64,000 nucleotides of DNA from Gemmatimonadota bacterium (lineage in GTDB: Bacteria; Latescibacterota; UBA2968; UBA8231): the NCBI GenBank assembly GCA_038128265.1, contig JAYPJE010000004.1, positions 54,303-118,302 of the forward strand, given 5' to 3'. Under the pieces are notes generated by a model. That model saw only the letters and a list, made by a program, of their open reading frames with translations. It was not told the DNA's origin and ran no database searches. Positions 34,024 to 54,599 of the stretch are shown here, in pieces. Numbering within the stretch: the stretch's first letter is position 1; each line of letters starts with the position of its first letter. The translations under genes were made by a program, and so were the position numbers.

Positions 34024-35889
34024 CTAGTGATGATGGTGATCGTGTTGGTGACCGGGAGATGCTGCAGCGTGCGCATGACCACAGCCGCACTCGTCGGCGT
34101 CGCCCGCCGCTTCGGCGTGATGGTGGTCGCCGTGATCGTGCTCGTCATCGCCGCCGGAAAACACTTCGCCGACAAAGGCACGCGGCCCCATGCGAACGAG
34201 AGAGGCTAAAAATAGCACGCCGAGCGCGACGGCACAGAGGCCCTGCCAGCTGTACCATTCCAGTGATTCACCCGCACTTAGCGACGGCGCGTTGACGGTG
34301 GGCAACAGCGCATTAACACCCCATCCCAGCACAATCGCCAACGCCATAATGGCTGCGGCAAAGGCGAGGGCTAAGTGGCGCCCGTGCAGGCGCGAGAGCA
34401 GGCCAAAGGTCGTCAGGTTAGTCGCCGGTCCCGTGAGCAAAAACGCCAGCGCGGCGCCCGGCGAAACGCCTTTATACACCAGCACAGCCGCCAGCGGCGT
34501 TGCGCCCGAGGCACAGACGTATGTTGGCACGCCAAGCAGCGCGAAGAGGGCCACTTCCGCTACGGCCGGCACGGCCATCAGCCATTCGGCACTCAGCAAC
34601 GAATCGGCCAGCGCAGCCACGCCAAGACCCAGCGCAATCCACGGCGCCGTATCGTCTACGACTTCACCCAGACCGGTCTGCATACTACGCGACAGGCGTG
34701 CGCGCAAATCAAGCGACGGTCGCGGTTCAGCCTCCTCTGGGCTATATGGCATGGAGGTCTGCGCCCAGCGGCCAATGCCCCAACCAATGCCCAATGCAAC
34801 AAGCGCTGCACAGCCCACGCGCACCAAGGTGAATTCTCCACCCAGCAGCGGCAGCGATATCAGCACGGCATCTATACTCAGCTCGGGCGTAGCCACCAGA
34901 AAGCTCAGCGCAGCAGAAACCGGCACGCCCTGGCCGACCAAACTGCGATAGACGGGGACCACACCGCATGAGCAAATGGGTAGGGGCAAGCCGAAGGTAG
35001 CCCCGCGCACAGCCTGCGATAGATGACCTCCGCGCCCCATCCACGCCAACGAGGCCTTTGGCATAAACTCGTATACCAAACCCGCTGCCACATAGGCCAG
35101 CAGCAGGGCTGGTGCACTCTCCCAGACGAGGCGCAGCAGGACATGACCCGCCTCGAGCATCCTGGGGTCCAAGTGGTCTGCCGCCATAAAGGAGAGCAGC
35201 GCCAATCCGCCGACCGCGCCCAGGCCCGCGTGGCGCCGGCGCGCCGACGGCGAAGACGACGACTCGGCGATGGGATAGGATCGATGGACTACTACGTGCA
35301 GCAAGGTACCGGCTACCAGCGCCTGAAACAGGCCGCGACCGTCGTTGGCCATGCCCCCAATCGCTGCTTCGCCGAGGGAAAAACCCAACACGGTCGCCAC
35401 GCCGATCAACACCAGCGTTGCCAGCGCCAGGGGCAAGCCGTATACGGGTCGAATGAGAAACCAGACCATCAGGCCCACCGGCAGGCGATGCAATACGACG
35501 GCCATGGGCAACATATGCTCGCCGCCGTGCGCGTGTCCCCCCTGTCCCAGCGCCAATCCATCCGTAAACGCATGTAGACCAATGCCAGCCAGCGCCAACA
35601 GCAGGGCGACGGCATGCGCCTGACGGGCGATCCTGCCCAGCCGGTGCTCAACGAGACCGGGGCCCAACAGCCCGAGCGCCAACGCGGCAAAGGCCGGCCA
35701 GCCGGCCAAGTGATAGGTCTCTGGAACGATGTGGATAAAGACGAGTCCACCAATCGTTATAAACACAAACCCATCCAACGCAGCCAGCATTGATCCGGTT
35801 ACGCGTGCCAGCTGGTGTAGCACGGGCCCCACGGCCAGCACCAGCAGACTCAGCACCAATAGGTAGACTTCGGTATGTTCGCCGTGCAC
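34024..35889 (-). CDS. Metal permease: ZIP-like N-domain fused to a DUF318/ArsP-type (SO_0444-like) permease, with a His-rich tail
   Basis: 'HAFTDG' and 'LHRLPVG' (ZIP-like); '[10 protein letters not shown]', 'YVCASGATP' and 'GPATN' (DUF318); tail 'HDHGDHHH...CGCGHAH...HQHDHHHH'. Confidence 0.8.
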
Positions 35890-41278: not shown

Positions 41279-42439
41279 ATGCCATTACGCGTCAATAATA
41301 ACATCGCGGCGATCAACTCGCGCAGGCGGTTGAATGCCAATAACCGAGACTTAAACACTCGCCTAGAGCGCCTGTCTTCGGGCTTGCGCATCAATCGCGC
41401 CGCCGACGATGCCGCTGGTCTTTCAGTCCGCGAAGGTATGCGAGCTGAAATTTCCGGTTTGAAGATGAACGTGCTCAACGCCGAGCAGGGGTCTAATCTC
41501 CTGCAGGTTGCCGAGGGCTCGCTCAACGAGATCAACGCCATGCTGATTCGCATGCGCGAACTGGCAGTGCAGTCGGCTTCGAGCACGGTCAACGACTCCA
41601 ACCGCGAGTCGATTCAGGCCGAATACTCGCAGCTGACGCAGGAAATAGACCGCATTGCGCAGTCTACGACCTATAACGACCAGGTGCTGCTCACCGGTTT
41701 CGGCAACACCGTCGATGCAGATTCGTCTGCGCTGACGGCGAGCAATGAAACCGGCATCACGGCCGTTAAGATCTCGGGAGCGTCGACCGGCACGTACAAC
41801 TTCATCGACGATGAAGACGACAGCGAAATAACGCTGGGCAACGGCACCGTCACGCAGACCATCCGCGTGGCGACCCTACTCGACGGCGACGACGTGGCCA
41901 CCGGCACGACTATCGTGGCCAATTTCGACCGCCTCGGGGTCCAGGTGACGCTGGCCGGCGCCAACGTCAGCAATGCCACGGGCAGCTACTCCGATGGCGG
42001 CTTGGACGAAAAGCAAATCGTTGTCGAATCGAGCACGGGCGGTTCGTTCCAGGTCGGTCCGGACGACGGCATCAACAACCGCATCGAAGTCGGCATTCAG
42101 GATATGCGTGCCTCGGGCGCCATACTCAACCTGAATGCGACCTCGGTCGCCACGCTCGACGCATCGCGAGCCTCGATCACGCAGATCGACCAGGCCATTT
42201 TTAAGGTGTCGAATCAGCGCGGCGATCTGGGTGCCTTCATGAACCGACTGGCATTCACAATCTCGTTCACTGAGAACGAAATTGAGAATATCCAGAACTC
42301 GGAGGCTTCGATCAGCGATGCCGACGTGGCGGCTGAAGTCACGGCCTTCACGCGCTCGCAGATCCTCAGCCAGGCGGCCACCTCCATGCTGGCTCAGGCC
42401 AACGTGGTGCCGCAGACGGCGCTGTCTCTCCTGCAGTAA
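41279..42439 (+). CDS. fliC: Flagellin
   Basis: 'ERLSSGLRINRAADDAAGL', 'RMRELAVQS', 'RGDLGAFMNRL', 'QILSQAATSMLAQAN...LSLLQ'. Confidence 0.97.
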   Translation: MPLRVNNNIAAINSRRRLNANNRDLNTRLERLSSGLRINRAADDAAGLSVREGMRAEISGLKMNVLNAEQGSNLLQVAEGSLNEINAMLIRMRELAVQSASSTVNDSNRESIQAEYSQLTQEIDRIAQSTTYNDQVLLTGFGNTVDADSSALTASNETGITAVKISGASTGTYNFIDDEDDSEITLGNGTVTQTIRVATLLDGDDVATGTTIVANFDRLGVQVTLAGANVSNATGSYSDGGLDEKQIVVESSTGGSFQVGPDDGINNRIEVGIQDMRASGAILNLNATSVATLDASRASITQIDQAIFKVSNQRGDLGAFMNRLAFTISFTENEIENIQNSEASISDADVAAEVTAFTRSQILSQAATSMLAQANVVPQTALSLLQ

Positions 42440-42460
42440 GCGATACACGGGAAGTAAACG

Positions 42461-42499
42461 AGAGAGGGGCGGGATATTCCCGCCCCTCTCTTATTTTTT
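42461..42499 (+). terminator. Rho-independent terminator of fliC
   Basis: Perfect 14-bp stem AGAGAGGGGCGGGA-TAT-TCCCGCCCCTCTCT followed by TATTTTTT. Confidence 0.9.
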
Positions 42500-42916
42500 G
42501 ACCCACTTCTTTCCGCTGGCCGACCCGGGATCAGGCGGTCCCTCTTCCCCCTGTAAAACAAAGCCGATAAAGCGCTTTTCCCCCAGCGTCTTTAAATATT
42601 GCAGCAGCGACACCTCAGCCTCTTTCCTATTGAGCTGGTAGGTATCGCTAAGCTTCTCGATCATATCGCCAACCGAGGTGCGGCCATTGCACATCTGCCA
42701 AACTTCGGTGCCCACTTCATCGAGCGTTATTTTGCGCTTCTTGGGGATGTAAAACAGCTTCGAGAGCAGGCGCACTTTCCACGTTTCCTGACGCACGATG
42801 CTAATTTGCACCTCGCCGTCGTCGGTCTTCTCCCACTCAAGCGACTCATTCCGCGTCGGTCGCGACGCCAGCATCGCTCCCCTGTTTAACTTCGGTTTCT
42901 TCGATAAAATGCCCAT
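42491..42916 (-). CDS. Stand-alone PqqD-family / RiPP recognition element (RRE) protein
   Basis: 'ITLDEVGTEVWQMCNGRTSVGDMIEKL...LLQYLKTLGEKRFI' matches the PqqD winged-helix pattern. Confidence 0.85.
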   Translation of the reverse strand: MGILSKKPKLNRGAMLASRPTRNESLEWEKTDDGEVQISIVRQETWKVRLLSKLFYIPKKRKITLDEVGTEVWQMCNGRTSVGDMIEKLSDTYQLNRKEAEVSLLQYLKTLGEKRFIGFVLQGEEGPPDPGSASGKKWVKK

Positions 42917-43841
42917 GAACTACGGTATCCACTAAGTCTGAGGCCCCGTCGCGCTTGCGATAGAGATGTTCGACGATGCCTATCTTGTCCAGGTCTTGAC
43001 GATGCCACACCCGCGCATCGAGAAAGAGGCGCGGGCGCGGGTTGACGAAAGGCAGCGGGCGCAGCAGCTGCCGCCAGCGGCTGCGCGGACGCCCAACCAA
43101 GCGCAATCCGCTGTGCCCTTCAACCGCCTCTGTCGTTATTTCAGTCTGAAAATCGCGCAGCTGCTTTTTAAAGAATGCCGGGTACCAATTTTCGAGAGCA
43201 CTTCCCTTGAGTAGGAGGCGTGCCATGCTCAAGCGATGCACGCGGCACTCTTTGCGACCCTGTTCAAAGCGCAGCTGAATATGTCCGGATTTGAGTTCGT
43301 GTCCGGCCAGAGCGTATTCGGACGACATAAAAAAGCGCAGGCCATACACGCACCACAGGTACTGTTCGGCATCGGCCTCGTCGCGCAGCGAACGAAATAT
43401 GCGCTCGACTACATCGCCCAGATCTTCGCCGCGATGGGCCAGCACGCGCAGCAGCACGACGCGCTGAGTAGCGACAAAGCGCATGGCCAAGTTATAGGCG
43501 CGAAAATCCGCATCCCAGGTAAAAAGCTCGTAGTCGTATCCCTCTAACCACTGCTTTTCTTTCAGAATGCGCGCGCGACGCTGCACCTCGAAACCCGCGC
43601 CCGCCTTGTCCGCCTTTTTCCGCAAACCCTCTAAATAGCGATCGACGAGTTCGCCCAGCGGCACGCTCACCTCGCGCCCCTTGAGCTTGCGCCATTCGAC
43701 CTCGGCGCGCACGATTTCGGCATCGTCGAGGCGCGCATAGCCCTTTTCCGCATCGCCGTCGACGCGGCCCAAATTCCAGTCGGCCGGCACGCTCAGACGC
43801 AGCCCCTGCCAACCGAACTCTTCCCAGCGATCCTCGGCCAT
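42846..43841 (-). CDS. Hypothetical soluble protein with two apparent internal repeats
   Basis: 331-aa ORF directly abutting the OPT-like gene stop; no signal peptide or TM. Confidence 0.75.
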   Translation of the reverse strand: MAEDRWEEFGWQGLRLSVPADWNLGRVDGDAEKGYARLDDAEIVRAEVEWRKLKGREVSVPLGELVDRYLEGLRKKADKAGAGFEVQRRARILKEKQWLEGYDYELFTWDADFRAYNLAMRFVATQRVVLLRVLAHRGEDLGDVVERIFRSLRDEADAEQYLWCVYGLRFFMSSEYALAGHELKSGHIQLRFEQGRKECRVHRLSMARLLLKGSALENWYPAFFKKQLRDFQTEITTEAVEGHSGLRLVGRPRSRWRQLLRPLPFVNPRPRLFLDARVWHRQDLDKIGIVEHLYRKRDGASDLVDTVVHGHFIEETEVKQGSDAGVATDAE

Positions 43842-46259
43842 TTAGAACAGGAGCACGGAGACCGACTTCTGAATCAGCGCGATGCCGACGGAAGCCATAC
43901 CCATTAGGGCCATTCCGCAGGCAAAACCCACCGCTAGGATCGGCGCGTACTGGCGCCACTGCTGGCGTCCATACTTGTTCCAGAAATAGTAGCGCGCCAG
44001 CAGGGCACCGATCACCTCGGTGACGATAAAGTGCGGCAAAACCGTCAGCGAGCGCACAAATCCGAAGATGAGCAGCACGGGCAACCCCAGCACGGAGAGC
44101 AGCACAAAACTGACGATGCCAAATCCCGCACCGATGGCTATGACCTCGGGCTTGAGCGCACGGAACAGCCACGGCTCATCGGTCGAGCGCTGGATCCACG
44201 ACGAGGTGAATAATGGGTCGGTGTCGACCTCAAAATAGTAGTGCCAGCCGGTTGGAACCGCCGCATCGGCGCGCACCACCAGCGTCGGACGCGGATCGCG
44301 CACCACGGCATCCATCGCCGGTCCGAGCGCCCCGAGCGCCGGCAGACCGCCAACGATTTCCTCGCTGGGATCGCTGGCATCGCGCAGAAAGCGGTCGGCG
44401 GCGATGTCCGGGGCACCCGCTTCAAAGTGCGTGTAGAACACCTGTGTTTCCGACCACGGCCCCACCTTGCCGAACTTGCCGCCGGTCTCCAGCCACTCAT
44501 CGTCGACCAAGCGCGTGCGCCAGTACCACCACTCGTCCTCTATCAGGTTGGCAGGCGTCCAATCGGCCTGCTGCGCCGTCATATTGAGCTCGCTGCGCAT
44601 GGTCCCGGTGATAAAGAGGCACTGCTGGTAGGCGCGCAGGCGCCATATCAGCTGGGCGTAGGGATACGACGCCGACGGGATCGGCGCCAGCTTCCAGATA
44701 TAGGAACCGTAGAGAAAGCTGGTAAAAAGGACGATGGGCACCATGAAAATCTCGGCGCGCATAATACTGGTGAATTTAGTACCGGTCAGCTCGATTTCGC
44801 GGAACTTCTGCGTTTGTGCACCGTAGTTGCCGATCGGAAAGGGAATAAACCAGATATCGACGCCGCGATAGCCCGATAAAATTATCGTCGCCTCGCGCAC
44901 AAAGGGTATTTCCACCGTTTGCCCAACAAGGCCAACCAGGCGCGCGTTGACAAACGATTGAAAAGGCGTGAAGACAAAGCCAAAAAAGAGGAAAAACCAG
45001 ATGAATTGACTGAAGCCTGGCAGCAGCCAAGCGGCGATACTAATCAGCGCCGTCGTTGCCACCGCGTAGAGCGCCAGCGCAATCCATATGGGAAAGTCGC
45101 CCCGTCCCTTGGGGACGGCAAAGCTGCGGCGCTCGCCGCTGTCGGCTTCCGCCGCGTTCGATGCGCGGACGCCCTGCACGACCTGGTAAATACCGATAAT
45201 CGCTATGGCGATCGTAGTTCCAATGCCAAAACTCATCCAGAAGTCGACGTTGTTGACAAAGAACGTATCGATCGTCCCCATCCCCTGCCGCCACAGCGTT
45301 AGGTAGGGCTCGTCGCGCCATGGCGGAGTATAGATGTAGAGAATAGGGTTGGCAATCGCCGCTACGCAGACGCCAATAAACGTGCCAATGACACCCCAAA
45401 ATGGAACGACGAGTCCCGCGAAGATCGGCCCCAAGTGCGCGGTAAAGCCCAGCGGCGTAGCGGGGATAAAGTTACCTGTCACCTGGGTAAAGTCGACAAA
45501 GGGAATGGGAATAAGCTGAATCGGTTCCGTCAGCAGCGCCCCCGTAATGGCCGGCAGCGCCACATAAATCGTGCCGAATACCAGGCCAATCATCGCGCCG
45601 GCAGAAAACACGCGCCAGCGCCAGGTCTCGGCTCCCTGCGTGGTCTCGGCCAAAGCAATAGCTCCCAGCGCGTTTACCGGCGCGAAGGGAAAGGGCAGGC
45701 GCTCGTAGTCCGAATTGAGGCGAAATAGCGCGTAGGACATCGTAAACCACGACACGCGCGATATGATCATACCCGCCACCAGCAGAACAATCGGCATCAG
45801 CCAGTCGCTGTGCAGAAAGGTGCGCTCGATAATCGCTTCGGAATCGGGCGGCGGCGCTACCCACGTCGGTATCAGCTTGGTAATGCCAAACTGCTTGGCA
45901 GCCGGCGACTGCACCAGATACTGGTTGTATAGCAGCCCCTCAAACGCGCCCGTCTCCGCCGAAATAAGCGAAGCGGCTACGTAGAAAAGGAGATAGACCT
46001 CCTGGCGCTTGAGCGTGGAAAAAGAGCGTTTGGTTATTTCGGCAAAGAGGATGATCGTCACCCACTCTGCCGCAGCGCCCAACGAGCCCCCAATCATCAG
46101 GCTCAGATACATATTGCCCGGAACCATGATAAAGGCCACAAAGAGCACGCCGAGAATGGCCTTTATGGTAAAGCCGTCCTCGAATTCGTCCGGGACCTGC
46201 ATTAGGTCCCTGTACTCTTCGATCTCCTGGTTCGGGTTTCTCTTCTTGCTTTCGGCCAC
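43842..46259 (-). CDS. OPT (oligopeptide transporter)-like polytopic membrane protein with a soluble insert
   Basis: 'FEDGFTIKAILG...NMYLSLMIG', many TMs, 'ERLPFP', and a ~150-aa hydrophilic insert near the C-terminus. Confidence 0.75.
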   Translation of the reverse strand: MAESKKRNPNQEIEEYRDLMQVPDEFEDGFTIKAILGVLFVAFIMVPGNMYLSLMIGGSLGAAAEWVTIILFAEITKRSFSTLKRQEVYLLFYVAASLISAETGAFEGLLYNQYLVQSPAAKQFGITKLIPTWVAPPPDSEAIIERTFLHSDWLMPIVLLVAGMIISRVSWFTMSYALFRLNSDYERLPFPFAPVNALGAIALAETTQGAETWRWRVFSAGAMIGLVFGTIYVALPAITGALLTEPIQLIPIPFVDFTQVTGNFIPATPLGFTAHLGPIFAGLVVPFWGVIGTFIGVCVAAIANPILYIYTPPWRDEPYLTLWRQGMGTIDTFFVNNVDFWMSFGIGTTIAIAIIGIYQVVQGVRASNAAEADSGERRSFAVPKGRGDFPIWIALALYAVATTALISIAAWLLPGFSQFIWFFLFFGFVFTPFQSFVNARLVGLVGQTVEIPFVREATIILSGYRGVDIWFIPFPIGNYGAQTQKFREIELTGTKFTSIMRAEIFMVPIVLFTSFLYGSYIWKLAPIPSASYPYAQLIWRLRAYQQCLFITGTMRSELNMTAQQADWTPANLIEDEWWYWRTRLVDDEWLETGGKFGKVGPWSETQVFYTHFEAGAPDIAADRFLRDASDPSEEIVGGLPALGALGPAMDAVVRDPRPTLVVRADAAVPTGWHYYFEVDTDPLFTSSWIQRSTDEPWLFRALKPEVIAIGAGFGIVSFVLLSVLGLPVLLIFGFVRSLTVLPHFIVTEVIGALLARYYFWNKYGRQQWRQYAPILAVGFACGMALMGMASVGIALIQKSVSVLLF

Positions 46260-46291
46260 GCGTTATTCCCTTGTTCCCTTTGTGGTAAACC

Positions 46292-49200
46292 CTAAGCGAT
46301 TGTTTCCTGGCGCATTTCCTCGAGCATTTCACTTCCCTGATGCCGATAGGCTTCCTTCGCCTCGCTGTCAACCGTGCGCCAAATGAGGAATTGCTTGCGT
46401 ATGACGTTCATAAAGCGCTGGTTGACGCGCCGCCACGATGCGTCTTCTCCGCTGAGCCGCTGCAGCTTCAATGCGACGGAATATATATTGTGCTCAGCGT
46501 CTGGAATGGCCCGCAGCGTGACGTGCTGGCTAACGCCGAGGTCAAACGGCGCCAACCAGATGTTCATATCGATGGCATACGAAGTGCCCTCGGCAATTTC
46601 TTCGCACGACAGCTTGGCCCCGTCGGTGTAAAAGGTGCCGATCGACTCTTCGCTGTACGAATCGAAGTAGCCGATGAGAAACACGTTGAGGCCGAGGACC
46701 TCGTGTCCGCTGACGGTAAAGGGGAACTCAAAATTCCACTCATCGCCCTCGGGCGGTGGCAGCTTCCACTTGCGCGTCACATCGGGCACAGCCATCTGCG
46801 ATGCTTTGCGCGCCGGATAAATCGTCGACAGCATCACCACCGCCATCACCAGCATGCAGGAGAGCACGGCGGCCACCGACGAATAGTTGAGCGTAAAGCC
46901 GGCCAGCAGGTTGAGTTCGATTAGCACTTTAGCAATAATCTGGCCGCTGAGATAACCGGCGACGACGCCCAGCACCGAATACACGCACGATTCAGCAATA
47001 AACAGCCAGGATATGTGCCCGGGAGCCAGCCCCACCGACGAGTAAATACCTATCTCTCGAAAGCGCTCGTAGACGCTCCCCATCATCGTATTGAGCACGA
47101 TGAGCGAGGCGATTAGGATGGGTATAAACAGGTTGCTCATCCCCGAAAAAGACGTCAGACCCAGCGATGAATAGATCGAGACTTTGATGTACTCGTCGCC
47201 GGTTTCTTTGATGCCGGCAAAGAGCGTTACGGCGAGGCGCGAGAGGAAGTTCTCCACCTCGGCCCGCTCGTCGATTCCCTCGTCAAAGCGCACGGCGACC
47301 GACTGCAGCGGGTTGCCGCTGCCGATGTTGCGCAGCGTCTCGTAGGGAATAATTAGCGTGTTGGCCGGCTCCAGGTGAACAAACGGCTTTATCACGACCT
47401 TTGTATCTTCTAGCCCCTGTTTTTCGCGCTGCTCCTCTTCGGCCATCTCCTGCACCGCCTGCCCACCCGTCACGGCAAAGTCGGCCGGCGTCAGAATTTC
47501 GTCGTCGAGGTCTTTGAGGTCTTTCATACGGCGCGAATCGAGCACGCCAATCACCGTAAAGTAGTCGCCAAATACGCGAACCTGCGCCGACCCCACTTCC
47601 TCAAGTGGAATGTTCAGATTGCCAGCGGCGATCATATCGCTGGGCAGGATACACACTTTTTCCTCGCCCGGCTCAAACCAGCGCCCGGCAATAAGGGCGC
47701 GATCCAGCGCGGTGATATTGCGCTCCTGCGGCGTCAAGCCCAGCACGCCCAGCGCGTTATGCGCATGGTCGCCGTGCTTCATCTTTATGTGCGCTTTGGA
47801 TTTGTTGCTGTACCAGCTGCGCGGGGCAATGGTGCCGACCTCGGCGAAGTTGCTCAGCGCGTAGTCGAGCACCGAATCCTCCATCGGATTCCACGCCTTA
47901 CTGCGAATTAAAATGCCTTCGTAGAGCCCTTCGTTATCGCGCTGAATCTGGTTAAAACGCAGCCCTGTGCGGATCGAGGTAAACGAAAGAACGGTAAAGG
48001 TGAGTAACAGCAGGGTGAGAAACGTGAGTATCGTGCGCGTCTTGCGCCGCTTCATATTCGATATGCCCAGCTGAAAGGCGGTCAGCGAGGCGCTCGAGCG
48101 ACTGACGTCCGTGTCGTGGATCACCGCGACTTCGGTGCGCAGCTTTTTCATTTGCTCGTTAAAGCGACCCGATATAATCGACATGACCAATACGGCCAGC
48201 GCAATAATGACAAAGGCCAGCAGTATGACAAATGGGTTGGACAGCTGGAAAGCCGGATGCACCAACCACAGCACGGTCCAGATGGCCATAAATACGCCAA
48301 CGAATCCGAGTATCTGATTCTTGATCGTCGCTGCGGTTATAATCAGACGCTCGGTGAAAAACGCGCAGGGAATGACCAATGCCATAAAGAAGATGATGCC
48401 CTGCACGACGTCGTTTTGCGTCGATTTCACATCGGGATAGGCACGCGATTCAAGGCCGAAAGCAGCGCGCGTGTGGCGCACGAAATCGCCCCAGCGCTTT
48501 TCGCTCTGCGCCTTGTCGGCCGCCGCCAATTCAACAGCGGCGCGTTCGTGCAAATCGTTGAGGCGCTGATTTTCGATGGCGAAGCTCTTTAGCTCGCGCA
48601 TGCGCGACTCGTCGAGCGTCCACATATCCTTGGCCGCCTGGTAGGTCGTGCGCGCAAAGGACACGCCGGAGCGAATCTCAAAGCCCTCGCCTTCGGCCTT
48701 GCTCTTGTCGGTCACGCTGGTTGCATTGAGCAACAGTGAGCGAAAACCCAACAAACCCGCACCAAACCCCATCTTGATGCTCGAACCGGGGCGGGCAAAG
48801 AGCACGCCTACTGGTTCGTTGAGCGCTGAGGGTCCCTCCCCCGTCGTAAAGCCATACTCGACGGGCGCGCTGTTGGCCTCATCGAACACGCTCACCGCAC
48901 TTAGCTTGGTCAAATAGCGGGGATCGACAATGTCGAAGAAGTTATAGGCTACGCAGGGAAAGAGAATGACCATCCATTCTTTGTCGCGCCAGTCCATGGT
49001 CACGAGCATGGGATAGGCCTCGTCGCCCTGCACGCCCTTATCCGGCGCATAGACAATGCTGCCGGTGATTGGATCCATGTAATAACCTTCAACCTGCACG
49101 CGGTTGACACGCACGCGGTTGACGTAAAAAGATCCCGTCTGGTCTACGAGTTCGAAATACTCCCCACGCACGCCCTTGTACGACTTTTTCTTGCCGTTGC

Positions 49201-51058
49201 GCACCGCGGCAACGGCGCCGGTGCGCGGCAGATCAGGAATGATGCTGCGGCGCGGGAACACCATCGTTTTCCCCGTAAGCGAGCGCAAATTGTCGCGCAG
49301 GCGCATCTTGAAGTCGGGAAAGAGCTCCGGGTCTTCGAAGGCCATGTGAAACATGCCGGCCAGCACGCGAATCTGCTTGGAGAGGTTTTCGTAGTTGACT
49401 TTTTCGGGGCGATCGAGGGGCGTGTCGACGAGAAAGCGCGCATCGTTGACGGTGACAAAGGCCAGCGCCGGTGTGCCGGTAGCCAGCACCAATTCGCTGT
49501 TGACCGAAATCTCGCCCGGCACAAACGTCGACCAGCTCATCCCGCCTTCCGGGCTGATGCCGTTGACCAACACGTCGCGACGCTGATAGTCTAGCTCGCG
49601 GCTGATCTCCTGGGCATAGCGCATAAAGTTTTTGCCAAAGGGCGCAAAGTAGCGCTTGTAGTAGAACGAGCTATTGCTGTTCCACACGCCCAACTCATCG
49701 GTCTGCGTGGACAGGTCCAAGCTGATAAAGAGCTTGACCTGCAGCGAATCTACTTTGGGGTCGACCCACTGGCGGAAAAGCTGCAGGCGCACATCCTCGT
49801 CTGAAAGCGCTTCTCGCTTCAGTTCGTCTTCGCTGGCAAAGCGCTCGTCGCCGACGATGAGGGCACTACCCTCACTGCCCACTAGGCCATCGGCCACCGC
49901 GTCATCTACAATGCGCCCGACCAACACCTCGTCGCCCTTGACGACGTGGCGCACCAGCGCCTCTTTGCCGGTAAACTCCTCGCGGCCCAGACGGTACTGA
50001 ATGCCGTCCTTGTCGATCAGATTGCGCGCCAGCGCCGCATCAACGACGCGGCGGACCAGCATGTGGTCGATAAAAGGATCTTCTTTGCGCAGATAGCGCT
50101 GGATAAAGTCGTCGACGCCGCGCAGCCCCAAGTGGTGGGCAGACGTCGCCAGGAATACAATGGTGCGCGCCGGCGGGTTTTCGCGAAAATACCGAGCCAG
50201 TTCCAATAGGGCCGTAGCGCTGGCCGCCTGCTCTGCGCCCGGCGCCAGTGAAGGAACAACGGACATCGCATCGTAATAGCCCTCGAGCACGACCACGTCT
50301 TCTTTGAGCAGCGGATCGTAGCCCGGTATGGTGCCCATCACATTCCATGCCGAGCGCCGCTCCCAATCCATTCGATAGGCCAACTTAGCCGACAGCGCAG
50401 GGTCGGCCTTGATGCGCTGGCGCAGCATCTGCCCATCGGCCTTGCTCACCCAAAAACGAGGCACGTCGAGCGGCATGGAGAGGAACTTCTTCTCACCCTC
50501 TAGGTAGACGGTCGAATCGGGTTCGATAAAGATCAGGGCGCTGGCACCGAGATAGGCGGCATTGAGCCAGGCATCGCCGGAGTTGAAATCCATCAGCACG
50601 GCAGCGCCCTCGACTTCGAAACCGTCCATCGACGAATACTCGCCTCGTCCCGCGTCAATGAGCGGCGCTTCTATGCCGCCGTCGGGCAATGTCGAGGTCT
50701 TGACCAAATTGGGCCAAATACCGTGCAGTCGCACGGCGTCGCCCGTCGACGGCAGCGACAGTTCACCGCCTTTGTCGATGGGTATGGAGACGTCGTATTC
50801 GTGAATGGTGATTTCGTCGAGGCCAATCTCGCGGAAATTGTCCTGAATAAAGCGGGCCGCCTCGTCGGCACCCGGGTAGCCCACTACGCGAGAACCCAGG
50901 CCTGCGAGATGACCGAGCGTCTGCTGCACGCGCGCCGTGGGAGCCGTCTGCGCCAGTTCGGCAAAGTCGACTTCCGCACTAGCCCAATGGGGCCATGCAG
51001 CGGCCACAGCGCTCAGCAGCAGGACAAAACGCCTAGTCAGGAAATCTATTTTTTTCAA
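46292..51058 (-). CDS. M28-peptidase-fold / PA domain fused to an FtsX/MacB-type permease (1588 aa)
   Basis: Signal peptide; 'SRVVGYPG', 'NVMGTIPG', 'ALLELAR...PPARTIVF' (M28 fold). 'NMKRRKTRTILT', 'AGRWF', 'YERFREIGIYSSVG', 'IYPARKAS' (FtsX/MacB). Confidence 0.85.
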   Translation of the reverse strand: MKKIDFLTRRFVLLLSAVAAAWPHWASAEVDFAELAQTAPTARVQQTLGHLAGLGSRVVGYPGADEAARFIQDNFREIGLDEITIHEYDVSIPIDKGGELSLPSTGDAVRLHGIWPNLVKTSTLPDGGIEAPLIDAGRGEYSSMDGFEVEGAAVLMDFNSGDAWLNAAYLGASALIFIEPDSTVYLEGEKKFLSMPLDVPRFWVSKADGQMLRQRIKADPALSAKLAYRMDWERRSAWNVMGTIPGYDPLLKEDVVVLEGYYDAMSVVPSLAPGAEQAASATALLELARYFRENPPARTIVFLATSAHHLGLRGVDDFIQRYLRKEDPFIDHMLVRRVVDAALARNLIDKDGIQYRLGREEFTGKEALVRHVVKGDEVLVGRIVDDAVADGLVGSEGSALIVGDERFASEDELKREALSDEDVRLQLFRQWVDPKVDSLQVKLFISLDLSTQTDELGVWNSNSSFYYKRYFAPFGKNFMRYAQEISRELDYQRRDVLVNGISPEGGMSWSTFVPGEISVNSELVLATGTPALAFVTVNDARFLVDTPLDRPEKVNYENLSKQIRVLAGMFHMAFEDPELFPDFKMRLRDNLRSLTGKTMVFPRRSIIPDLPRTGAVAAVRNGKKKSYKGVRGEYFELVDQTGSFYVNRVRVNRVQVEGYYMDPITGSIVYAPDKGVQGDEAYPMLVTMDWRDKEWMVILFPCVAYNFFDIVDPRYLTKLSAVSVFDEANSAPVEYGFTTGEGPSALNEPVGVLFARPGSSIKMGFGAGLLGFRSLLLNATSVTDKSKAEGEGFEIRSGVSFARTTYQAAKDMWTLDESRMRELKSFAIENQRLNDLHERAAVELAAADKAQSEKRWGDFVRHTRAAFGLESRAYPDVKSTQNDVVQGIIFFMALVIPCAFFTERLIITAATIKNQILGFVGVFMAIWTVLWLVHPAFQLSNPFVILLAFVIIALAVLVMSIISGRFNEQMKKLRTEVAVIHDTDVSRSSASLTAFQLGISNMKRRKTRTILTFLTLLLLTFTVLSFTSIRTGLRFNQIQRDNEGLYEGILIRSKAWNPMEDSVLDYALSNFAEVGTIAPRSWYSNKSKAHIKMKHGDHAHNALGVLGLTPQERNITALDRALIAGRWFEPGEEKVCILPSDMIAAGNLNIPLEEVGSAQVRVFGDYFTVIGVLDSRRMKDLKDLDDEILTPADFAVTGGQAVQEMAEEEQREKQGLEDTKVVIKPFVHLEPANTLIIPYETLRNIGSGNPLQSVAVRFDEGIDERAEVENFLSRLAVTLFAGIKETGDEYIKVSIYSSLGLTSFSGMSNLFIPILIASLIVLNTMMGSVYERFREIGIYSSVGLAPGHISWLFIAESCVYSVLGVVAGYLSGQIIAKVLIELNLLAGFTLNYSSVAAVLSCMLVMAVVMLSTIYPARKASQMAVPDVTRKWKLPPPEGDEWNFEFPFTVSGHEVLGLNVFLIGYFDSYSEESIGTFYTDGAKLSCEEIAEGTSYAIDMNIWLAPFDLGVSQHVTLRAIPDAEHNIYSVALKLQRLSGEDASWRRVNQRFMNVIRKQFLIWRTVDSEAKEAYRHQGSEMLEEMRQETIA

Positions 51059-51181
51059 ATTCGCATACCCCGTTTTCTACGTGTTCCCATACGAGTCGTG
51101 CTAATATAAACAAAAGACGACCGAGTTCCACCTTAAAGCCACCGCCCAGCACAGGTCCTTGCCATACACCACAGTCCTCGA

Positions 51182-51700
51182 CTACTCCTCGCGGCGGGCA
51201 GCGATCCAAGCAGAGCGCACGCTTATCCAATGGGCCAACAGACCGATTAAGATACCGCTTACCAAGGCACCGAGCAACGCGACCGGCAATAGGCTGAACA
51301 CCCCCCACTGGCCGATGTATAGATAGGCGAGAACGAGTTGGGCCAGCTGATGGGCGAGTGCCCCCCAGACTCCTAGGCCGATCGGACTGAACAGGCCCCG
51401 CGCCACCGTCCACACGACCGACATTACGAGCCAACTGCACGCGCCAGCCCCGGCCCCTATGGAGAAGGCCGGCCCCGCCAATGCCCCGCTCAATAAGCCT
51501 CCCAGCAGCAGCTTGAGGGCGCTGACGGTTAGCGCAGCCACCGGACCGTACGCCGTGAGCGCCAGCACGACGGGCAAGTTGCCCAGGCCGAGTTTCATCC
51601 ACGGCAGCGGACGCGGAGCCAACCCCTCAAAAACGTAGAGCACGACGGCTGCAGCGGCCAGCAGGCTAATACGCGCAATGCGCTGCGTGTTGGCAACCAC
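51182..51700 (-). CDS. Gx transporter family membrane protein (Hpre_diP_synt_I; EetB-like)
   Basis: 'PLPWMKLGLGN' and 'SPIGLGVWGALAHQLAQL' family motifs. Confidence 0.85.
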   Translation of the reverse strand: MVANTQRIARISLLAAAAVVLYVFEGLAPRPLPWMKLGLGNLPVVLALTAYGPVAALTVSALKLLLGGLLSGALAGPAFSIGAGAGACSWLVMSVVWTVARGLFSPIGLGVWGALAHQLAQLVLAYLYIGQWGVFSLLPVALLGALVSGILIGLLAHWISVRSAWIAARREE

Positions 51701-51702
51701 CC

Positions 51703-52095
51703 TTAGCGCACCACTGCGTCAAGACCGGCGTGTTCGCCCAAAAGCGTGAGCACCACCTTGTTGGGCACGCAGACGATGGCATCTCCCCGCCGCAGGGCCC
51801 AGCGGCGGAGCACACAGCGCTGCTGGCGACAGGGGGAAGAAACCATTCGCACGCCCTGGGGTCCCACTTCGACCTGGCTGACGCCCAGCGGTCCGGTCAC
51901 CGAATGCACTGCCTGGTCCGCCAGATCGTATACGCGCGCGTCGTCCGCGCTCTGCACCAGAACGCGTTGCCCGGGTTCGACGCGGTAATCGGCGACCATA
52001 AGGACGACAGTCGCCGCGCTGAGGCAGGCGATTAGCAGCCAATCGGCCAGGGTGAGTGGCGATCGTCCAGCCCGTGAGTTGAGAGCGCTATCCAC
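51703..52095 (-). CDS. NusG domain II / DUF1312 protein (EetA-like)
   Basis: N-terminal TM; 'GPLG...VRMVSSPCRQQRCV...AIVCVPNKV'. Confidence 0.85.
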   Translation of the reverse strand: MDSALNSRAGRSPLTLADWLLIACLSAATVVLMVADYRVEPGQRVLVQSADDARVYDLADQAVHSVTGPLGVSQVEVGPQGVRMVSSPCRQQRCVLRRWALRRGDAIVCVPNKVVLTLLGEHAGLDAVVR

Positions 52096-52952: not shown

Positions 52953-54599
52953 GTGAAGAGGTCAGCGCGCGTTTCGCTGCTGGCCGTCCTCTGTTTCTCC
53001 TGTCTATTTCTCCACACCGCTTGGGAAAAATCGCCGACCTGGGATGAGGTCGGCTACATAGGTCTGGGAGCGTACCTGATCAAAACCGGCCAGTGGGACG
53101 TCCCCGCCTCCGGTTCGCATCCCCCCCTCGCCTTTTACGTCAACAGCCTGCCGTCTTTTTTCTTTCCCATTGATTGGACGCACTGGCACTACCCCAACAT
53201 CGTGCGCGACGTGCGCTTTCTGCGCATGGCCGATACGGAGCGCGGCAACGCGCTCCTGCTCGACCCGCGCTACGACGGCGAAGTATTCTTTTTCTTAACG
53301 CGCGCGACCTCACTTGTTTTCGCCTTTGCCCTCTTCGCCGTTCTGCTGCGTTGGAGCAGAGAAATGCTGCCCTATCCGCGCAATGTACTCCCGGCTTTTC
53401 TCTGCGCCCTATCGCCCAATGTGCTCGCCCACGCGACGCTTATCAATACCGACTTTGCCCTTACGACCACCTTTATCTGCGCTGTATTTGCCCTGCGTTC
53501 TCTGTTATACGAGCCATCGAAGAGCCGCTTTATTGCCTGTGGCATCGCCCTTGGTCTAGCGCTGCTCAGTAAACTATCGGCTCTCGTATTGCTGCCGATT
53601 TTTGCCGTATTAATCGCCCATTTCTACCTATGCGCCAGTGCCCCGCAGCGGGAGGCGGTCAACCGCTTTCTGTCCCCACTGCCTATGCGCCTACTACCCG
53701 TGCGCCTGGCCCTGTGCTTTGGAGCCCTGTGCGCAGTGGCAGCCGTCGTACTGTGGGCAGGCTACGGCTTTCAGATTCAACCCTACTGGCATATGGTACA
53801 GTCGCAGCTATGGGACTTGGAGACGGGACACTGGGCCTATCTAATGGGCGAGTTTTCCACGCGCGGATGGTGGTACTACTTCCCCATCGCCCTGCTGATC
53901 AAAACGCCCATCGCCACGCTACTCCTCGTCGGCGCTGGCCTACTGCCGCTGCTATTGCGCCGCCAACTGCGCCTCGAAATGGGCTTTTTACTCATCGCAC
54001 CGCTGGTTCTCGTGGCCGGCTTTGTCCTGGGCAATAGCAAAAATATTGGCCTGCGCTATATCCTGCCCATTTACCCCTTCCTGTTTTTGATTGCCGCACA
54101 TGCCGAGTTTCCGCTGCGCGACCGAATACGCCCGTGGGCCGCAGCAACGCTCTGCGCCTGGTACGCCCTTTCCACACTCTCCACACATCCACACCATCTG
54201 GCCTACTTTAACGAGTCAGTTGGCGGGCCAGCCAACGGCCATCACTATATGGTCGATTCAAATCTCGATTGGGGACAGGATCTAAAAGGCCTCAAGCGCT
54301 ATATGGACGAACGCGACATCGACTCGGTAAAGCTGAGCTACTTTGGCACGGTCGATCCGCGCCTCTACGATTTGCGCTACGAGTGGTTGCCCAGTTTCAT
54401 CTTGCCCAACCCCGACCCGCAGCAACAGGTCGTCCTGCCGGCCGATGGGCTCATTGCCATTAGCGCGACCAACTTGGTCGGCGTCTATATGGACCAGTAT
54501 GGCCACGGCAGGGACATTTTTGCCTGGCTCCGACGGCACCAGCCCATCGCGCACATCGGTCACTCCATCCTGATCTACGATATTCCTCCCAACCCCTAG
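52953..54599 (+). CDS. GT-C fold glycosyltransferase (ArnT/PMT-like, lipid-carrier dependent)
   Basis: 'SPTWDE', 'HPPL', 'SKLSAL', 'WWYYFP...IKTP', 'GLRYILP', 'DSNLDWGQD'. Start uncertain (GTG 52953 or 52908). Confidence 0.85.
   Translation: MKRSARVSLLAVLCFSCLFLHTAWEKSPTWDEVGYIGLGAYLIKTGQWDVPASGSHPPLAFYVNSLPSFFFPIDWTHWHYPNIVRDVRFLRMADTERGNALLLDPRYDGEVFFFLTRATSLVFAFALFAVLLRWSREMLPYPRNVLPAFLCALSPNVLAHATLINTDFALTTTFICAVFALRSLLYEPSKSRFIACGIALGLALLSKLSALVLLPIFAVLIAHFYLCASAPQREAVNRFLSPLPMRLLPVRLALCFGALCAVAAVVLWAGYGFQIQPYWHMVQSQLWDLETGHWAYLMGEFSTRGWWYYFPIALLIKTPIATLLLVGAGLLPLLLRRQLRLEMGFLLIAPLVLVAGFVLGNSKNIGLRYILPIYPFLFLIAAHAEFPLRDRIRPWAAATLCAWYALSTLSTHPHHLAYFNESVGGPANGHHYMVDSNLDWGQDLKGLKRYMDERDIDSVKLSYFGTVDPRLYDLRYEWLPSFILPNPDPQQQVVLPADGLIAISATNLVGVYMDQYGHGRDIFAWLRRHQPIAHIGHSILIYDIPPNP

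Follow-up and report, generated by a model that had tools for sequence, protein, structure and literature searches.

What kind of system is encoded by four tightly packed genes, one specifying a giant membrane protein with a peptidase-shaped head, one a polytopic permease-like protein, one a 331-aa protein and one a small PqqD-like protein? The genes lie on the minus strand of a 64,000-nucleotide stretch of DNA (the window; positions 54,303 to 118,302 of contig JAYPJE010000004.1, assembly GCA_038128265.1) from a bacterium of the phylum Latescibacterota. An earlier reading of the letters alone (the original prediction) proposed that they form a complete machine for handling peptides. We find that the cluster is composed of two separable gene pairs, and that it appears not to be autonomous. 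[quoted passage not shown]

A conserved cluster and its proposed longer ancestral operon

The list of open reading frames (ORFs) places the four genes as originally described, with a gap of 32 nt between the genes for the giant and the 805-aa OPT-like protein, no gap between those for the OPT-like and 331-aa proteins, and an overlap of 71 nt between those for the 331-aa and PqqD-like proteins. We scanned species-representative genomes with an alignment of the 331-aa protein and recovered 78 related loci. All four proteins give tblastn matches in the same order in 69 of these, and 64 have complete ORFs for all four; the arrangement is conserved far beyond chance, and the proposal of one conserved multi-component membrane system is borne out as far as co-occurrence is concerned. 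Six of the nine incomplete loci are truncated at contig ends (L013, L028, L044, L050, L085 and L087), L036 has no match to the giant upstream although its flank is full, and in the distantly related L082 and L088 the 331/PqqD pair has another context. At L026 a stretch of about 6.4 kb lies between the giant gene's end and the OPT-like gene, and the layouts of L026 and L036 likely reflect insertion or rearrangement. The junction between the 331-aa and OPT-like genes is 0–4 nt in most loci of the close family, f1, and since synteny in this family reaches unrelated neighbors, adjacency there proves little by itself.

The cluster is two separable pairs, giant/OPT and 331/PqqD, and not one unit. 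In families f2, f3, f4 and f9 the 331/PqqD pair is located apart from any giant/OPT module, and in the L082 genome a giant gene and its OPT-like partner are together, approximately 740 kb from the 331/PqqD pair.

The same genes are part of a longer operon in two deep lineages. The order at L108 (f12) is a DUF6785/6784 gene, a TPR gene, then giant, OPT-like, 331-aa and PqqD, followed by a gene for a 228-aa FtsX-domain protein and an ABC ATPase gene; at L104 (f8) the order is TPR, giant, OPT-like, 331-aa, PqqD, small FtsX and ATPase. The small FtsX proteins of these two loci are 60% identical, and the ATPases 76%. The genome studied here has orthologues of both on contig C44, where genes for a minimal 233-aa FtsX protein and an ATPase lie side by side, the products being 58% and 75% identical to the deep-lineage ones. 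The small FtsX crosses the membrane in four transmembrane (TM) segments, with only some 40 residues lying outside it, and the best NCBIfam models for the ATPase are LolD, MacB, DarD, YbbA, DevA and FtsE, which are of the type VII class. None of the 66 ABC_tran matches in this genome lies inside a giant module, and a Pfam scan of the 21 ORFs between 28 and 60 kb of the window identified no ABC ATPase, no maturase for peptides made on the ribosome and modified after translation (RiPPs) and no radical-SAM gene. The earlier observation that the operon contains no ATPase, maturase or precursor thus stands for the first two; no search of small ORFs for a RiPP precursor peptide was made. From these sequence comparisons, the four genes would not be autonomous, and an ATPase and a second FtsX unit, whose physical pairing with the giant we infer, would be encoded elsewhere in the genome. 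The idea of the four genes as the whole machine is not sustained, and the neighborhood search that accompanied it, for a partner ATPase near homologues, did locate one directly after the same genes in f8 and f12.

An alternative explanation is that the four genes are a self-contained relay that needs no ATPase, in which the pseudo-peptidase captures a peptide, the OPT-like protein moves it using the proton gradient, the RiPP recognition element (RRE) of the PqqD-like protein receives it, and the FtsX part is only an anchor. The tight packing of the genes and the lack of an ATPase gene in any giant module of the genome fit this proposal, and OPT-family transporters are not known to need ATP. 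However, an ATPase of the cognate type and a second FtsX follow the same genes in the deep lineages and are kept elsewhere in this genome, and the giant retains a full MacB-type unit which, in the alignment with MacB, includes the TM2–TM3 loop; in MacB-type permeases this loop is the contact with the ATPase. We consider the relay to be very unlikely.

The numbers of genes in this genome point to a different organization. There are at least five giant modules and four OPT-like genes of the 805-aa family, as against a single 331-aa gene and a single small FtsX gene. The modules on contigs C1, C65 and C7 each contain a giant, a DUF6785/6784 protein and an OPT-like protein, and on C13 there is a 2118-aa fusion in which MacB_PCD and FtsX domains are joined to DUF6785 and DUF6784, which argues for contact between giants and OPT-fold permeases. 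The fusion gene is flanked by genes for a sulfatase, a PhyH dioxygenase and three FG-GAP/ASPIC proteins. Since the giant modules number five or more while the motor and 331/PqqD pairs are present once each, we propose exchangeable receptor-permease cartridges that would share one motor and one adaptor.

The phyletic pattern was surveyed in 168 genomes of this one phylum, with the PqqD gene counted in sampled loci only. The 331-aa protein is found in 149 of the 168 genomes (E ≤ 0.001), the small FtsX in 148 (E ≤ 1e-30) and the giant head (residues 1–880) in 155 (E ≤ 1e-10). All three are absent from the 13 genomes of family f10 (0/13), and an OPT-like profile gives nothing in the six f10 genomes searched with it, with positive controls; the same profile gives four copies in the genome under study and one each in genomes G033 and G011. 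Of the genomes surveyed, 144 have both the 331-aa protein and the small FtsX, 15 have neither, and nine (60–91% complete) have one without the other. The two genes are neighbors in six genomes belonging to f8, f11 and f12, and in two f9 genomes they lie 13 kb from each other. In a tree of OPT-like proteins the copies adjacent to 331/PqqD fall into two paralogue clades, one of f1 (support 100/100) and one of f8/f12 (100/98) that includes the C65 and C7 paralogues of this genome. Since the adjoining OPT-like copies belong to two different paralogue clades, the link between 331/PqqD and OPT is more than inherited gene order.

These observations are consistent with a machine in which the giant contributes one FtsX-type membrane unit and a large peptidase-shaped periplasmic head with a rebuilt, probably non-catalytic site, most likely a ligand binder. 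The 233-aa FtsX and the LolD-like ATPase of C44 would be the second membrane unit and the motor, and the 805-aa OPT-fold protein would be the permease paired with the giant. The 331-aa and PqqD-like proteins, as a single-copy cytoplasmic pair, would act as adaptor or regulator, perhaps holding a peptide segment of a subunit or of the cargo. ATP-driven movement of the head would then hand captured material to the permease for uptake. A more elaborate form, which we put forward only as an unlikely conjecture, is a hybrid of primary and secondary transport, in which an ATP-moved dead-peptidase receptor gates or feeds a proton-driven OPT permease and the RRE reads a peptide tag on each cartridge, thereby selecting the engaged one.

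The same machine could also work outward, as Lol- or YbbAP-like extraction of lipid, lipoprotein, glycan or surface protein from the inner membrane, with the OPT-fold proteins as exporters or flippases and the peptidase-like head passing cargo to the outer envelope. Genes for PorV-like, SurA-like peptidyl-prolyl isomerase (PPIase) and TPR proteins flank paralogous or ancestral modules, the C44 motor pair lies directly after the gene for an S41 (PDZ) tail-specific envelope protease and before a TauE-type exporter gene, and the characterised type VII ABC systems all do envelope work, with no import among them (PMC12646458). By contrast, the genes beside other modules encode a ROK kinase, enolase-superfamily and GFO/IDH-type enzymes, a sulfatase and FG-GAP/ASPIC proteins, which hint at nutrient use, not at peptides specifically; the location of several diversified cartridges near sulfatase, ROK kinase, enolase-superfamily and GFO/IDH oxidoreductase genes suits uptake better than extraction. 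The characterised members of the OPT and Yellow Stripe-like (YSL) family are, moreover, known as importers. Outward movement is in our assessment doubtful, and uptake remains the direction that we favor.

Several considerations weigh against an uptake machine that survives here as a remnant of a longer operon. Completeness of the assembly is 84.5%, and contamination 5.15%. In NCBIfam the FtsX units and the C44 ATPase score below every equivalog cut-off, and the C44 pair, given the protease gene upstream, could serve another system. What lies beside the paralogous modules hints no less at the metabolism of sugars or sugar acids than at peptides. The joint absence of the components is essentially that of one clade, f10, and therefore counts as one event and not 13. 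Lastly, the 331/PqqD pair not only stands apart from giant/OPT modules in four families, as noted above, but its 331-aa gene is divergent from lexA in five of the six annotated loci of f2–f4 (L097, L099, L101, L103 and L110), and the pair could have its own separate role. In three of these five loci dprA is next to lexA. Other genes are in places found between the 331-aa and PqqD genes in f2–f4, as at L097, where a xylose-isomerase-like TIM-barrel gene intervenes. SOS control of the pair is possible.

The last of these points can be taken further, to the proposition that the 331/PqqD pair is unrelated to the membrane proteins and is a separate cytoplasmic regulator or a factor linked to stress or DNA damage. 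In addition to its position near lexA and dprA and its separation from giant/OPT genes, the pair has RecD2, UvrC or bifunctional nuclease genes downstream in other loci, and the f1 synteny that might tie it to the cluster extends well past the four genes; RRE domains also resemble winged-helix DNA binders (PMC7470986). It is difficult to reconcile this proposition with f8 and f12, where the pair follows the OPT-like gene and precedes those for the small FtsX and the ATPase, with the adjacency of the pair to OPT-like copies of two different paralogue clades, with the family-level presence and absence pattern common to the pair, the giant and the small FtsX, or with the nearly gapless junction to the OPT-like gene in most f1 loci. 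We regard an unrelated pair as distinctly unlikely, and retain the shared adaptor of a type VII uptake machine as the preferred interpretation.

Properties of the four proteins

The giant begins with a signal-peptide-like N-terminus (read from the sequence), and its hydropathy and loop charges indicate a periplasmic head of about 850 residues (29–883), three TM helices (884–962), a basic cytoplasmic loop, a single MacB/FtsX unit and, at the C-terminus, a cytoplasmic domain of 164 aa. Orthologues in the related loci are 71–95% identical and full length. The MacB-like periplasmic core domain (MacB_PCD) is flanked by TM segments at residues 1009–1027 and 1304–1322 (hydropathy), and MacB (5lil) is matched over residues 1234–1422 (E 7.1e-10). 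The giant therefore has both parts that characterise a type VII permease, the FtsX four-helix domain and a large periplasmic domain between TM1 and TM2. When the C-terminal domain was compared with Protein Data Bank sequences, only designed proteins were returned, with no passing stretch.

The head of the giant has been called a pseudo-peptidase, and closer comparison agrees. Pfam Peptidase_M28 matches residues 239–320 with 33.9 bits, over profile positions 1–78 of 193 only, and since positions 79–193 are unmatched the last two M28 ligands cannot be placed. Relative to the aminopeptidase YwaD (6hc6), the M28 histidine ligand is replaced by Tyr261, the bridging aspartate by Gln277 and the Glu-Glu pair by His308-His309, and these four residues are kept in 59, 62, 58 and 58 of 63 orthologues of the giant, respectively. 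Three paralogues of the giant in this genome also lack the canonical M28 ligand set. The two-zinc site that defines an active M28 aminopeptidase is not present in the head, which makes an active peptidase unlikely, and the conservation of the substitutions indicates that the metal site has been rebuilt and is under selection, and has not simply decayed.

At E ≤ 0.1 neither Pfam, with its OPT profile PF03169, nor NCBIfam gives a match to the 805-aa protein, whose assignment is indirect, coming not from a family match of its own but from the OPT matches of its relatives and from its predicted fold. Nineteen of 52 aligned relatives match PF03169 (best E 5e-18). An AlphaFold2 model (predicted local distance difference test [pLDDT] 83.4, predicted template modeling score [pTM] 0.84) has only two significant Foldseek matches, both to the barley Yellow Stripe 1 transporter HvYS1 (7wst, E 2.5e-9, and 7wsr, E 1.3e-8), with probability 1.00, template modeling scores of 0.64–0.66 on the target and 13% identity. 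Alignment by hhalign to DUF6785/DUF6784 proteins gives 97.7% probability and E 1.4e-12 over 564 columns; there is no direct Pfam match of the 805-aa protein to either family (PF20581/PF20580), and BLASTP against a DUF6785 protein gives E 1.2. We interpret the protein as a putative polytopic and divergent permease of the OPT/Yellow Stripe fold and a distant paralogue of the DUF6785/DUF6784 proteins, in keeping with its initial description as OPT-like. Its relatives number 3453 at E ≤ 0.001 among 7999 scored candidates, all of them unnamed (977 representatives). An acidic insert present in the 805-aa protein is absent from three paralogues of about 660–690 aa in this genome; it is strand-rich and of low confidence in the model, and contains 13 basic and 25 acidic residues.

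No Pfam (E ≤ 0.1) or NCBIfam match was found for the 331-aa protein, and we therefore describe it from its AlphaFold2 model (pLDDT 85.5, pTM 0.81). The top Foldseek matches are TplEi/Tli4, PsbP, Mog1 and EagT6, with 17 matches at E ≤ 0.001. In VIA-align comparisons residues 4–155 superimpose on PsbP (2xb3; Z 13.3, root-mean-square deviation [rmsd] 2.9, 139 residues aligned) and residues 158–320 on Mog1 (1jhs; Z 12.2, rmsd 3.5, 146 aligned), and the protein is predicted to be soluble, with two PsbP/Mog1/DcrB-like domains. This fold is typical for binding or chaperone proteins rather than enzymes. A search for longer proteins returned no fused forms, which is weak evidence. As a lead only, a protein atlas places nearest to the 331-aa protein clusters of unnamed proteins of about 320–327 aa labeled Gemmatimonadota, Armatimonadota and Thermodesulfobacteriota (score 0.97).

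The 141-aa protein was described as a stand-alone PqqD-like protein, and residues 61–117 do match Pfam PqqD (PF05402) with 46.3 bits against a cut-off of 23.4 (E 5.5e-12), in a context that appears not to be that of a RiPP pathway. All six of its NCBIfam matches are sub-threshold, the best being lasso_PqqD_Bac, with 32.1 bits where the cut-off is 80, and the nearest solved sequences, PqqD (5sxy and 3g2b), a lasso PqqD-family chaperone and TbiB1, are matched weakly (E 0.09–0.27). In an alignment of 31 sequences the N-terminal extension is basic and conserved, with R12, M15, S18, P20, R22, N23 and W28 invariant, and the C-terminal tail ASGKKW is also conserved. Within the overlap with the 331-aa gene, it is the third codon positions, read in the PqqD frame, that vary (entropy 0.37, 0.35 and 1.03 at the three positions, compared to 0.41, 0.30 and 1.05 in the remainder of the gene; 55 loci), which indicates that the upstream start and the N-terminal motif are real. 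The genome has a second PqqD-family gene, unrelated to this module, on the minus strand of contig C36 (C36:39345-39536; L113), adjoining genes for an NTP_transf_5 nucleotidyltransferase and for polysaccharide export (Poly_export/SLBB).

A PqqD domain raises the prospect of a RiPP-type pathway, in which the PqqD-like protein would present a precursor to a maturase, the 331-aa protein, and the membrane proteins would export or import the product. The Pfam match is above threshold, and a PqqD-like gene near transporters is usually read as the sign of a RiPP cluster (PMC7470986). Set against this, no maturase-type family is present among the 21 ORFs or beside the PqqD gene in other annotated loci (precursor ORFs were not searched for), all NCBIfam PqqD and lasso models score below their cut-offs, and the candidate maturase has a non-enzymatic PsbP/Mog1-type binding fold and is the product of a single-copy, near-universal core gene (149/168), quite different from patchy biosynthetic clusters. 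A RiPP pathway is thus hardly probable.

The locus and its neighbors

The features of the locus and the two related loci elsewhere in the genome are listed in Table 1. A GC-rich hairpin likely marks the end of the operon; its T-run is on the plus strand only, and termination of the minus-strand operon at this position is what we infer. A scan for promoters found eight, compared to 5.5 expected from shuffles, and is not above the shuffled expectation.

Table 1. Positions of genes, domains and other features, in window coordinates unless a contig (C) and a locus (L) are named.
Feature	Position	Strand	Evidence
Giant gene, 1588 aa	46292..51058	-	ORF list, start TTG
OPT-like gene, 805 aa	43842..46259	-	ORF list, start GTG
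331-aa gene	42846..43841	-	ORF list, start ATG
PqqD-like gene, 141 aa	42491..42916	-	ORF list, start ATG
Giant, PA/M28-like region of head, residues 40-326	50081..50941	-	phmmer to aminopeptidase YwaD 6hc6, E 1.4e-9
Giant, MacB-like periplasmic core domain, residues 1009-1200, between FtsX TM1 and TM2	47459..48034	-	Pfam PF12704, 29.4 bits (cut-off 27)
Giant, FtsX C-terminal permease domain, residues 1311-1422, TM2-TM4	46793..47128	-	Pfam PF02687, 56.1 bits (cut-off 25.5)
Giant, cytoplasmic C-terminal domain, residues 1425-1588	46295..46786	-	without Pfam or NCBIfam match
OPT-like protein, acidic Trp-rich insert, residues ~556-700	44160..44594	-	skipped in paralogue matches (~560-700)
GC-rich hairpin, 15-bp stem	42460..42492	.	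terminator-like scan; between convergent flagellin and PqqD genes
Fusion, 2118 aa, MacB_PCD and FtsX joined to DUF6785 and DUF6784	C13:16146-22502 (L112:6147-12503)	+	Pfam
Minimal FtsX and LolD-like ATPase pair	C44:16576-18067 (L111:7577-9071)		Pfam FtsX and ABC_tran

The flagellin gene (41279-42439, plus strand) is located between the PqqD gene and genes for a 204-aa protein and RecD2. It occupies the same place in 29 of the 78 related loci, with no match in the remainder, and most loci of the largest group lack it and have the 204-aa gene directly after the PqqD gene. On the other side of the cluster, a gene for an Hpre_diP_synt_I membrane protein and one for a protein with a NusG_II domain are tightly paired just upstream of the giant (51182-52095, minus strand). 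We considered this pair as a part of the system and rejected it; its distance to the giant ranges from about 0.1 to 2.2 kb across relatives, and the operons of L104 and L108 do not contain it. A counterpart of the upstream TPR gene of L104 and L108 was likewise looked for and is not present here; a 189-aa ORF at 51033-51602 is without a family and runs, in a different frame, across part of the Hpre_diP_synt_I gene. Further away, a gene on the minus strand (34024-35889) encodes a 621-aa protein with a ZIP zinc-transporter-like region and an ArsP_1 permease domain.

Comparison with known systems

As the original prediction anticipated, this arrangement appears to be without functional characterisation: literature searches gave no published description of the system, no paper on DUF6785 or DUF6784, none treating PqqD together with FtsX and none on OPT/YSL proteins working with ABC components, and searches on type VII ABC or MacB with OPT transporters gave known systems only. 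Parts of the system are present in about nine in ten of the 168 genomes searched, and if our interpretation is correct it would probably explain the uptake or handling of a major class of substrate by these abundant uncultured marine and sediment bacteria. A layout of many cartridges and one motor is also open to direct test.

The head of the giant recalls the inactive M28-fold receptors (transferrin receptor, nicastrin and nicalin), which we take to share with it an M28/PA-like ectodomain, the loss of metal ligands and membership of a membrane complex. These receptors differ in being eukaryotic and in having unrelated membrane parts.

Both halves of the 331-aa protein share the fold of PsbP, Mog1, DcrB and Eag proteins and of the type VI secretion system (T6SS) immunity proteins Tli4/TplEi, and the tandem arrangement is as in Tli4. 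Unlike these proteins, the 331-aa protein is apparently cytoplasmic (no signal peptide can be read from the sequence), identity is about 10%, and there is no T6SS or photosystem context; the shared fold gives no function for the protein.

To our knowledge, RRE domains come almost only from peptide natural-product pathways. The PqqD-like protein is similar to discrete RREs, such as PqqD and lasso B1 proteins (e.g. TbiB1), in having a PqqD domain of about 60 residues in a small stand-alone protein whose gene overlaps that of its partner. It differs in that the window ORFs scanned include no gene of a maturase type (precursors were not searched for), in its conserved N- and C-terminal extensions, and in its partner, which is a tandem PsbP/Mog1-like protein encoded by a single-copy core gene of the phylum and not an enzyme. 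In PMC7470986, PqqD-like proteins are used as RiPP markers and their likeness to DNA-binding domains is described. If the proposed role as adaptor is correct, it would be the first non-RiPP role for a PqqD-type domain.

The 805-aa protein resembles the OPT/YSL family (PF03169; HvYS1, 7WSR and 7WST) in its predicted fold and through transitive sequence homology (19/52 relatives). It departs from that family in its low identity to HvYS1, its lack of a Pfam match and its 145-residue insert, and genes of the 805-aa type are always beside a giant FtsX gene in the loci examined.

The closest resemblance is to the type VII ABC systems MacAB-TolC, LolCDE, FtsEX-EnvC and YbbAP-TesA. As in these, there is one FtsX unit of four helices, which carries a MacB-like domain between TM1 and TM2, and a candidate ATPase of the LolD/MacB/YbbA class is encoded alongside in the deep lineages and elsewhere in this genome. 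The two unequal FtsX subunits recall LolC/LolE, and the attached hydrolase-shaped periplasmic part recalls YbbAP-TesA, a type VII transporter with a hydrolase partner and the nearest precedent (PMC12646458). The system differs from all of these in several respects: the giant adds about 850 periplasmic residues and three TM helices in a single chain; the second FtsX subunit has an outer loop of only about 40 residues; polytopic OPT-fold permeases are partners, and one of them is fused to a giant; a cytoplasmic PqqD/PsbP-like pair is present; in this genome the putative motor genes lie apart from the giants; and no NCBIfam score reaches its equivalog cut-off. Type VII ABC systems are mechanical machines of the envelope that act with periplasmic partners, and OPT proteins are stand-alone secondary carriers; a system that joins these two families to an RRE would widen the known roles of each.

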